A stretch of 64,000 nt of DNA, taken from IMG/VR virus record IMGVR_UViG_2703718833_000007, positions 6,191 to 70,190 of that record. One strand, 5' to 3'. The DNA is from a virus (lineage: Duplodnaviria > Heunggongvirae > Uroviricota > Caudoviricetes). This document shows, one piece after another, positions 20,148 to 20,646 of the stretch; within the stretch, counting starts at the first letter, position 1; each line of letters starts with the position of its first letter. The notes under the pieces were generated by a model, which was given only the letters and a program-made list of their open reading frames with translations, did not search any database and was not told where the DNA came from. The position numbers and the translations under genes were made by a program.

Positions 20148-20222
20148 ATGATTGACCCGCTCATTATCCTTTCTTCCTGCGTCGCTGTATGGCTGGCGAT
20201 CATGATATTCATTGAAAGCTGA
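20148..20222 (+). CDS. Mini hydrophobic peptide 1 of 6 (24 aa)
   Basis: Own translation MIDPLIILSSCVAVWLAIMIFIES; GAGG SD. Confidence 0.4.
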   Translation: MIDPLIILSSCVAVWLAIMIFIES

Positions 20223-20232
20223 AGGTGTTCAC

Positions 20233-20307
20233 ATGAATATTTACGATCTCATCTGGTGGTCGTTGGTCGCCGTCATTATCTATTTATGGTGGAAGAATGT
20301 TGTATAG
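20233..20307 (+). CDS. Mini hydrophobic peptide 2 of 6 (24 aa)
   Basis: Own translation MNIYDLIWWSLVAVIIYLWWKNVV; AAGGTG SD. Confidence 0.4.
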   Translation: MNIYDLIWWSLVAVIIYLWWKNVV

Positions 20308-20315
20308 GTGACGGC

Positions 20316-20414
20316 ATGGATATATTCGAATTACTGGCGATTATGTGCGGAATGATGTTAGGCACTGTCGCCATAATCATCATCATCGGCCTTGTTATGG
20401 GTAGCATCAAATGA
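20316..20414 (+). CDS. Mini hydrophobic peptide 3 of 6 (32 aa)
   Basis: Own translation MDIFELLAIMCGMMLGTVAIIIIIGLVMGSIK; AGGTGA SD. Confidence 0.4.
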   Translation: MDIFELLAIMCGMMLGTVAIIIIIGLVMGSIK

Positions 20415-20491
20415 ACGCATACGAAATGCTATTGCTGGTGGCTGTTATTACAGTTATCGCCGTTGATTTTTATCGAGGGTTGAAAAGATGA
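20411..20491 (+). CDS. Mini hydrophobic peptide 4 of 6 (26 aa)
   Basis: Own translation MNAYEMLLLVAVITVIAVDFYRGLKR; ATGA overlap with peptide 3. Confidence 0.4.
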   Translation: MNAYEMLLLVAVITVIAVDFYRGLKR

Positions 20492-20559
20492 GAGAAGCAG
20501 ACTTCTTTTGCATGATTATGGTGATCGTCATCGTTGCCGTGCTTTTAAGCGTTAACTGA
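20488..20559 (+). CDS. Mini hydrophobic peptide 5 of 6 (23 aa)
   Basis: Own translation MREADFFCMIMVIVIVAVLLSVN; GAGGG SD; ATGA overlap with peptide 4. Confidence 0.4.
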   Translation: MREADFFCMIMVIVIVAVLLSVN

Positions 20560-20577
20560 ATCGCAGGGGGGTTAAAA

Positions 20578-20646
20578 ATGAAATGGCTTGATTTCTTTTT
20601 CCTGATCGTTGCGATTGTTCTTACCATGACCGCGCTGACTCAATAG
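20578..20646 (+). CDS. Mini hydrophobic peptide 6 of 6 (22 aa)
   Basis: Own translation MKWLDFFFLIVAIVLTMTALTQ; AGGGGGG SD. Confidence 0.4.
   Translation: MKWLDFFFLIVAIVLTMTALTQ

Follow-up and report, generated by a model that had tools for sequence, protein, structure and literature searches.

The window analysed here is a stretch of 64,000 nucleotides from a virus of the Caudoviricetes (IMG/VR record IMGVR_UViG_2703718833_000007, positions 6,191 to 70,190). At 20148-20646 on the plus strand it carries a tandem array of six ATG-start open reading frames (ORFs) of 24, 24, 32, 26, 23 and 22 codons, situated between a gene homologous to gene 49 of phage mEp021 (the gp49-like gene) and terS, the gene for the small terminase subunit. 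A first-pass annotation made from the letters of the sequence had proposed these six as mini-genes for hydrophobic peptides, and all of them are present on that strand with translations exactly as it gave them. It overlooked a seventh member, G', and also the main point: the six belong to a larger, hypervariable and strictly collinear array of cassettes. The seven mini-genes of the window are listed below; the copy numbers and the ratios of the proportions of nonsynonymous and synonymous differences (pN/pS) refer to the families into which the mini-genes of related phages were sorted.

20148-20222, plus strand: mini-gene A, 24 amino acids (aa), MIDPLIILSSCVAVWLAIMIFIES; family A, 51 of 51 copies intact, pN/pS 0.31
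20233-20307, plus strand: mini-gene B, 24 aa, MNIYDLIWWSLVAVIIYLWWKNVV; family B, 35 of 37 copies intact, pN/pS 0.35
20316-20414, plus strand: mini-gene C, 32 aa, MDIFELLAIMCGMMLGTVAIIIIIGLVMGSIK; family C, 24 of 24 copies intact, pN/pS 0.18
20411-20491, plus strand: mini-gene D, 26 aa, MNAYEMLLLVAVITVIAVDFYRGLKR; family D, 52 of 52 copies intact, pN/pS 0.26
20488-20559, plus strand: mini-gene E, 23 aa, MREADFFCMIMVIVIVAVLLSVN; family E, 18 of 18 copies intact, pN/pS 0.25
20578-20646, plus strand: mini-gene F, 22 aa, MKWLDFFFLIVAIVLTMTALTQ; family F, 49 of 50 copies intact, pN/pS 0.13
20716-20799, plus strand: mini-gene G', 27 aa, MKYLSSWLGVSIYFATLIECLYIVNKF; family G, 50 of 50 copies intact, pN/pS 0.23

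Mini-genes A to F occupy 94% of 20148-20646, in keeping with the near-complete filling of the gap noted before, and are spaced by 10, 8, -4, -4 and 18 nt. The ATGA coupling claimed for two junctions is confirmed by the overlaps at C/D and D/E. Mini-gene A starts 2 nt past the stop codon of the gp49-like gene, and its Shine-Dalgarno (SD) sequence, GAGG, sits in the end of that gene. The purine-rich SD sequences described earlier are real: pairing energies in the window range from -3.7 to -10.9 kcal/mol, the strongest being that of mini-gene F (GGGGGG, -10.9 kcal/mol). G', which lies 10 nt before terS, is a divergent allele of family G, the closing member of nearly every related array, and the same allele is present in mEp021 and mEp515. 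The spacer of 69 nt between F and G' (20647-20715) is the only sizeable non-coding stretch in the array and is common to the same two phages. It contains a 6-bp palindrome (GCGCAT-TTT-ATGCGC) with no T-run behind it, and it folds no better than shuffled sequences.

Six phages (mEp010, mEp013, mEp021, mEp044, mEp515 and mEp554) cover 88-95% of the region of interest at 89-92% identity, and MagusPhagus covers 81% of it at 92% identity. By these identities the prophage of the window is a member of the mEpimmI (mEp021-like) group residing in an Escherichia coli chromosome, of which the right part of the window holds ttcA and the Rac genes intR, recE and recT at 99.9% identity. These genes, with racC, lie at 50444-57242 and adjoin the prophage, so that two prophages stand side by side. 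The mEpimmI phages are Nus-dependent and have an N-like antiterminator, but their describers call them non-lambdoid (PMC11893012), which corrects the lambdoid frame of the first-pass annotation. They have been reported to be as prevalent as lambdoid phages in human faeces (PMC11893012). Among complete E. coli genomes this prophage type is rare (35 of 5426).

Selection on the reading frames

The number of hydrophobic ORFs in the array exceeds what its base composition would produce. In 2000 dinucleotide-preserving shuffles of 20148-20646, the mean number of comparable hydrophobic ORFs was 0.54 and the maximum 4; none of the 2000 reached 6. On the plus strand of the whole window, 14 small ATG-start ORFs pass the hydrophobicity cut-off for a transmembrane (TM)-like segment, and 5 of these fall within this 500-bp stretch. 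Thymine is found at 56% of second codon positions in the array.

We compared the mini-ORFs across 54 loci, comprising the window, seven isolated phages and 46 IMG/VR contigs. The IMG/VR loci (47) were fetched through terS, and a DNA pattern with degenerate positions, made for the invariant N-terminus of family D, brought in a further set of 23 metagenome contigs. Start codon and frame are intact in 481 of the 489 family copies. The eight remaining copies include ATG to ACG changes in family L (four related loci), an ATG to ATA change in family B and one frameshift; start-codon losses and frameshifts affect families B, L and F. Anti-SD pairing averages -5.4 kcal/mol over the 489 starts versus -2.2 kcal/mol at random positions.

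Substitutions within the families follow the codon structure, with 153, 104 and 266 variable sites at codon positions 1, 2 and 3, respectively. The Nei-Gojobori pN/pS, calculated as pairwise sums, is 0.13-0.37 in every family variable enough to measure, and 0.28 when the families are pooled. The shifted frames of the same DNA give 0.93 and 1.38, and the flanking gp49-like and terS genes 0.09 and 0.10. Because the ratio is low in the annotated frame, higher in the shifted frames and lower still in the flanks, the selection on the mini-genes is purifying, frame-specific and moderate. Residues fixed within families are Asp, Pro, Cys, Trp, Gly, Tyr and Arg, and the other changes are mostly exchanges among I, V, L and F. 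In family A, D3, C11 and E23 are invariant, and P4 and W15 are altered in one copy each. Residues 1-11 of family D are invariant except for an E5/D exchange, and D19, Y21 and R22 are fixed. Fixed glycines occur in families C, H, J and M.

The first-pass annotation had named frames that are not conserved in related prophages as an outcome that would speak against the genes. The frames are kept in all 54 related loci under frame-specific selection, and the pattern of substitutions suggests that the mini-ORFs are very probably real translated genes.

In RefSeq annotation the gap is blank. One RefSeq record, that of E. coli O157:H7 LSU61 (locus L055, 3790-4179, minus strand), shows a 130-aa antisense 'hypothetical protein' over the array. 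This antisense ORF is very likely spurious, because the selection on the plus strand is frame-specific. Some of the mini-ORFs are listed as hypothetical proteins in the PHANOTATE-based GenBank records of mEp phages.

Array variation and kinship in related phages

In every locus that includes both flanks, the 319-1155 bp that separate the gp49-like gene from terS are filled with hydrophobic mini-ORFs on the same strand, and the 23 metagenome contigs likewise hold mini-ORFs there. We sorted them into 20 families, A to T, with peptide lengths of 20-47 aa across families; the window carries A, B, C, D, E, F and the divergent G allele. The number of recognised genes per array is 3-12 in the 54 loci and reaches 13 in the metagenome set. 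The 54 loci display 38 distinct architectures, and all of these can be obtained by leaving out members of one master order: P/H/M/K/T - J - Q/R - A - B - S - C - D - E - F - I - L - N - O - G. Families E and N never occur in one array, and neither do H and M. Families I and L are nearly always paired and overlap by 8 nt. Family B is missing in mEp021 and mEp515. Breakpoints are located at gene starts: in mEp021, which has neither B nor C, the A-D junction matches the A-B junction of the window up to ATGAA and then continues with gene D. The array is a strictly collinear, hypervariable set of cassettes, and the window's genes are one sample of it. To judge from the start-codon losses and frameshifts, which are occasional natural knock-outs, single mini-genes appear to be individually dispensable.

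The peptides had been taken for paralogues on account of their common layout. We tested this by comparing alignment scores with those of composition-preserving shuffles, expressed as z. Families E, N and F are related (z 6.6-9.5, with 9.5 for E-N and 6.9 for E-F), as are D and Q (9.4), H and K (6.1) and G and G' (11.5). A weak relationship connects B, C and D through family Q (z 3.5-3.8), and mini-gene A has no demonstrable relative among the other mini-genes of the window. Thus the claim of paralogy is upheld for E and F, through N, receives weak support for B, C and D, and fails for A as far as kinship can be demonstrated. The shared acidic residue is real (position 3-6) but may be a determinant of membrane insertion and not a sign of common descent. 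The mixed kinship results suggest that the array arose partly by tandem duplication and is partly made up of genes that are unrelated or have diverged beyond recognition.

The distribution of the array is narrow. The family-D pattern was found in 41 IMG/VR contigs, all already known through terS, and in the 23 metagenome contigs, all of which show the same arrangement, with a gp49-like gene, plus terS wherever the contig reaches that far. It was found in none of 185,579 species-representative genomes, and a terS scan of the species-representative genomes also returned nothing. More distant terS genes of the Sf6 type (at most 52% identity) have no such gap or array upstream. In the inspected records of P22-like phages there is no array downstream of the gp49 homologue, and a 134-aa ORF follows orf129. 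By these searches the array is confined to mEpimmI-type coliphages, where it stands between the gp49-like protein gene, whose product contains an HExxH motif, and terS. Taken together, the distribution of the D pattern, the distant terS genes and the P22-like neighbourhoods suggest that the array is a lineage-specific elaboration of a known variable site.

Searches with the seven peptides recovered nothing below an E-value of 0.1 in PHROGs, and only sub-threshold low-complexity matches in Pfam (to E 10) and NCBIfam (to E 1). A query of the concatenated peptides against 5.8 billion proteins gave four matches (P0001-P0004), all of them read-throughs of the array in which TGA is translated as Trp. 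We rejected these as homologues: they are ORFs of 165-176 aa spanning several mini-genes and represent gene-calling artefacts in metagenome assemblies, presumably produced by a genetic code that reads TGA as Trp. A HMMER search with peptide C against 1.84 billion representatives recovered only family C itself, in two representative clusters. No description of such an array came up in full-text searches of the literature for small hydrophobic phage genes in tandem, and the paper on the mEpimmI group does not mention these small genes (PMC11893012). Small membrane proteins with a single helix are already known, as are small phage ORFs that lack annotation. What we have not found described is a conserved, collinear and hypervariable array of up to 13 near-minimal TM-helix genes drawn from about 20 families.

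The absence of remote homologues, together with the restriction of the families to one lineage, would also be expected if the mini-ORFs were by-products with little or no function: young hydrophobic ORFs born de novo in a T-rich spacer and kept mainly for the relay of ribosomes to terS or for a role of the DNA itself, such as packaging recognition. Hydrophobic micro-ORFs arise readily in T-rich DNA (PMC11188072), single genes are lost without apparent harm, and the constraint on them is weaker than in the flanks. However, every measurable family is under frame-specific purifying selection at the amino acid level, particular polar and glycine residues are invariant, and the unit of gain and loss is a whole gene with its own SD sequence. 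Neither Rfam nor the comparison of spacer folds with shuffles gave a signal of RNA structure. A functional terS follows arrays of 3 genes as well as arrays of 13, which suggests that no fixed length of spacer or relay is required. We therefore regard by-products as quite improbable.

The encoded peptides and known small peptide systems

Peptides A to F begin with a polar N-flank of 2-5 residues that has Asp or Glu at position 3-6 and a net charge of -2 to 0; G' has no acidic residue in its N-flank. An uncharged run of 13-26 residues follows, and then a C-flank of about 1-9 residues, which is basic in B, C and D, neutral in E, F and G', and acidic in A, where the peptide ends in ES. The mean hydrophobicity (0.29-0.68) and the helical hydrophobic moment (0.02-0.28) are like those of membrane anchors and not those of amphipathic peptides. 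Windows of 17 residues reach a grand average of hydropathy of 2.15-3.24 in A, C, D, E and F, with B slightly below the cut-off of 2.0. The membrane-spanning length is borderline for D, with its run of 13 residues, and for the 22-aa peptides. AlphaFold2 (AF2) models peptide C as one helix of residues 3-31, with a predicted local distance difference test (pLDDT) score of 93. The hydrophobicity profiles and this model support the earlier description of single-helix hydrophobic peptides encoded on the late-operon strand. The peptides have the two generic marks of small membrane proteins, a length of at most 50 aa and one hydrophobic helix of spanning length, and we consider it likely that they are single-pass proteins of the inner membrane. 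Peptide C contains two GxxxG motifs. Across the families, small-xxx-small motifs show no significant overall enrichment (199 of 2000 shuffles), and GxxxG is mildly enriched (5 versus 1.6 expected; 29 of 2000 shuffles) and present only in families C, H, M and R.

The array shares the single TM helix, the very short flanks and the neglect by annotation pipelines with the known small membrane proteins KdpF, MgtS/MgtR, AcrZ, PmrR and CydX (PMC12648545). These proteins bind larger membrane proteins and insert via YidC or Sec (PMC12648545). Unlike the array, which consists of 7 (elsewhere 3-13) head-to-tail phage genes that are unrelated or only loosely related and are swapped as cassettes, they are encoded by single chromosomal genes, often with their own regulation. 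Pfam and NCBIfam reveal no sequence relation of the peptides to any known family of small membrane proteins.

The nearest precedent in a phage is gp15 of HK97, a small inner-membrane protein of superinfection exclusion (PMC3594210). Like gp15 and other morons, the array is an accessory insertion among late genes with a patchy occurrence in relatives (PMC3594210), and its 38 architectures conform to the moron pattern of presence in some relatives and absence in others. Morons also differ from their surroundings in GC content, and so does the array, where hydrophobic coding alone would have this effect. In contrast, gp15 is encoded by a single gene with a promoter and a terminator of its own that is active in the prophage, and YebO proteins are its homologues, whereas the array genes are much shorter and have no detectable signals of their own (PMC3594210 for gp15). 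In a simple consensus scan of both strands, which weak signals may escape, neither promoter-like nor terminator-like sites rose above chance within the array or beside it; there were 6 promoter-like sites versus 10.6 in shuffles. The scan thus provides no promoter and terminator of the kind that marks a moron. Pfam, NCBIfam and the 5.8 billion proteins, artefacts aside, gave no homology of the peptides to gp15 or YebO.

Several very short genes for hydrophobic peptides in one region are also found in the tandem E. coli type I loci ibs/sib and ldr/rdl, where every repeat unit, several hundred bp long, comes with a promoter, a leader and a gene for an antisense RNA. Their peptides are similar to those of the array in length and hydrophobicity, but the units of the array are 70-100 bp long, polycistronic and coupled, and give no antisense signal. 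Type-I-toxin-like peptides were among the candidates of the first-pass annotation: each peptide would be toxic to the membrane unless an antisense RNA repressed it, and together they would stabilise the prophage. Size and composition resemble those of Ibs-, Ldr- and Fst-type toxins (as compared with reference sequences), and prophage-borne type I systems are known (PMC12648545). However, at a spacing of -4 to +18 nt, A-F could not accommodate separate promoters, extended 5' leaders or antisense genes. The scan counted fewer promoter-like sites than the shuffles contain, Rfam yields no match in the array up to an E-value of 1, antitoxin RNAs included, and neither Pfam nor NCBIfam matches a toxin family. 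The genes are moreover co-oriented with, and coupled to, essential late genes. With its spacing of 2-18 nt and no promoter, terminator or RNA signals of its own found, the array is incompatible with the layout of a type I toxin-antitoxin locus and with that of a classical moron carrying such signals, and a type-I-like function is highly unlikely.

Polycistronic mini-genes for peptides of about 20-25 residues have a parallel in the staphylococcal psm-alpha locus, in which four tandem genes encode peptides of about 21 aa that form amphipathic, surfactant-like helices. The likeness does not extend to the peptides: the hydrophobic moment of phenol-soluble modulins and delta-toxin is about 0.40-0.60, as calculated for reference sequences, versus 0.02-0.28 in the array, where 13-26 uncharged residues stand in a row.

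Lysis genes, neighbouring genes and possible function

About 0.9 kb separates the array from the holin-endolysin-Rz/Rz1 cassette, which precedes it on the same strand, and no strong terminator intervenes. The genes and signals around it are as follows.

17575-17593: strong terminator, upstream of the holin gene
17618-17818, plus strand: canonical holin of 66 aa with two transmembrane domains (TMDs)
17820-18311, plus strand: endolysin
18301-18822, plus strand: HNH endonuclease inserted between endolysin and Rz (PF13392, and PF00847, an AP2-like domain)
18810-19280: Rz with embedded Rz1
19561-20145, plus strand: gp49-like ORF of 194 aa, the upstream boundary of the array
20810-21295, plus strand: small terminase subunit of the Sf6 type (PF20901, E 4e-37; phrog_1482), the downstream boundary, followed by the large terminase

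The position raises the main rival explanation, which the first-pass annotation had listed as holin or pinholin modulators. In actinobacteriophages, small TM genes near lysis cassettes usually encode proteins of 70-130 aa with one to four helices and are taken as holins. The array resembles them as a run of small membrane-protein genes near lysis genes, but it comes with a separate canonical holin, and its peptides measure 20-47 aa. As modulators of lysis timing, the peptides would build up in the inner membrane along with the holin and would either partly depolarise the membrane, thereby triggering the holin early, or pair with holin helices and delay it, so that the number and mix of cassettes would set the lysis clock. 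The short distance to the lysis genes without an intervening strong terminator, the nature of the peptides as pure TM helices and the copy number of 3-13, which would suit a dosage mechanism, are consistent with such a role. On the other hand, the lysis cassette is already complete with its holin, endolysin and Rz/Rz1, and the gp49-like gene stands between it and the array. In the records inspected, P22-like phages have a gp49 homologue between Rz and terS and no array. Among the loci whose fetched stretch includes the holin, nearly all have one of 90-97% identity, and the arrays of the same loci vary widely, from 3 to 12 genes. By this comparison array content appears to be independent of the holin allele, which weakens the modulator candidate. 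The peptides themselves, with 22-32 aa and flanks of 0-8 residues, do not look like holins, which have one to four TMDs, usually 60-150 aa and a charged C-terminal tail, and sequence-specific constraint in 20 families exceeds the needs of a generic depolariser. We consider a role in lysis timing unlikely.

The gp49-like gene is directly upstream of the array in all 54 related loci that include that stretch. Its product has invariant H79, E80, H83 and H87 (HExxH...H) and a Lys/Glu-rich tail, belongs to phrog_1365 (function unknown) and falls into no Pfam family. The AF2 model (pLDDT 73) has no significant neighbour in the PDB; its BFVD matches comprise numerous phage proteins that are uncharacterised, plus a few that carry the label SprT-like or metalloprotease, and one nr entry names a homologue as a PolyVal metallopeptidase domain. 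The motif and these matches point to a putative small metallopeptidase of the SprT-like or PolyVal type. Beyond adjacency, we found no functional tie between this protein and the peptides. Homologues in P22-like phages are 35-45% identical and include orf129 (ST64T, L) and hkcC (HK620). Those of 44-45% identity sit between Rz and gene 3 in the two records inspected, and those of 35% identity elsewhere, near sieA in P22. PADLOC, applied to three neighbouring proteins only, gave no match.

Several further features of the prophage were observed in passing. No gene is present between endolysin and Rz in the records of mEp phages and RefSeq prophages whose annotation was read, and in mEp013 another HNH gene stands between the gp49-like gene and its array (locus L005, 2082-2567). 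This part of the genome appears to be a recurrent target of homing endonucleases. The endolysin of the window is 52-56% identical to those of about 50 related loci, versus 90-97% for the holin and 75-96% for Rz, as if this one gene had been exchanged for another allele. The N-terminal sequence of the endolysin, TKAAAGGTLAIASVLLVWV, is similar to a signal-anchor-release segment.

Small hydrophobic ORFs also occur elsewhere on the plus strand. Two coupled ORFs of 37 and 39 aa (5764-5877 and 5886-6005) lie directly upstream of an anti-RecBCD (abc2-like) gene, in a stretch that is 87-91% identical in six mEp phages and 78% in MagusPhagus. An ORF of 30 aa is located at 7735-7827, and a two-helix ORF of about 65-78 aa at 16926-17162, immediately ahead of the terminator that precedes the holin gene.

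The plus-strand gene at 22834-24225, which follows the large terminase where the portal gene usually stands, is named 'anti-CBASS protein Acb1 family protein' by RefSeq in three genomes and 'DUF1073 domain-containing protein' in a fourth (loci L055-L058). It has no PADLOC match, and its NCBIfam match is weak and sub-threshold. The Acb1 name may be an over-annotation or a hint of a fused function.

What the array does can be approached through its population pattern. The repertoire of mini-genes turns over fast and the flanks and holin are near constant, and we therefore judge an accessory role in conflict to be the most likely function. Natural knock-outs, mutually exclusive alleles and turnover of content form the pattern of conflict loci and not of core lysis or packaging genes, and a core function in lysis or packaging is less likely. 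That the peptides act at the inner membrane in a conflict between phages, or between phage and host, is a tentative proposal, which we would put forward as possible. The explanation as a whole, which joins the coding array, the membrane peptides and the conflict-related function, is a plausible one that we still hold with reserve.

Under this explanation, the mini-genes would share the rightward transcript with the lysis and packaging genes and be translated through coupling, being 2-18 nt apart or overlapping by ATGA, with the 69-nt spacer before G'. The peptides would enter the inner membrane with the N-terminus out and the C-terminus in, the orientation predicted from their charge pattern by the positive-inside rule. 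Topology and insertion may depend on the acidic residue at position 3-6 and on a C-flank that is basic or neutral, as in the small phage coat proteins that depend on YidC and the proton-motive force and use acidic N-tails. Small membrane proteins generally depend on YidC or Sec (PMC12648545). Each peptide would then act through sequence-specific helix-helix binding to an inner-membrane protein, and might block the entry of rival phage DNA or neutralise membrane-embedded effectors of host defence or stress in late infection. The other two functions suggested in the first-pass annotation, superinfection exclusion and inhibition of host membrane proteins, are still candidates.

In a bolder form, the array would be a fast-reshuffled library of minimal TM binders, each helix of 22-47 residues being tuned to one inner-membrane target: the DNA-entry route of a rival phage, a membrane-embedded abortive-infection effector or a host stress sensor. 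Cassettes would be swapped by recombination at gene starts, which would keep pace with competitors. We regard this form as doubtful.

A number of points weigh against the conflict explanation. Peptides of 22-24 residues are at the lower limit for crossing a bilayer. The pN/pS of the mini-genes is about three times that of the flanking genes, so that the constraint is moderate, and the pairwise sums behind it are not phylogenetically independent, with the direction being the same in all families. The GC content of the array is 0.406 versus 0.475-0.51 in the flanks, but the coding of hydrophobic residues by itself demands T-rich codons. The low GC and the abundance of T at second positions follow from it and provide no independent evidence of horizontal origin. 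The proposed function rests on anatomy and population pattern, and the family and protein searches returned no homologue of known function. Finally, late expression confined to the lytic cycle would leave a lysogen unprotected, which makes superinfection exclusion a weaker version of the proposal unless there is lysogenic read-through.

Each mEpimmI genome carries up to 13 conserved genes that are blank in RefSeq and, read-through artefacts aside, are represented neither in the protein-family libraries searched nor in the collection of 5.8 billion proteins. This exposes a systematic gap in annotation, and in at least one RefSeq record an antisense ORF that we judge to be spurious covers the array. 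With about 20 families of near-minimal TM helices under selection, presence/absence variants and natural knock-outs, the array is a natural experiment on what a bare TM helix does for a virus and on how micro-proteins arise, duplicate and are exchanged. Phages of the group grow on E. coli K-12, which makes these questions directly testable. If the peptides are specific inhibitors of membrane proteins, the array would be a source of very small membrane-protein binders. If it is a reshuffled library of such binders, it would do at the membrane what anti-defence islands do elsewhere, with proteins as small as they can be that escape current annotation and protein databases.

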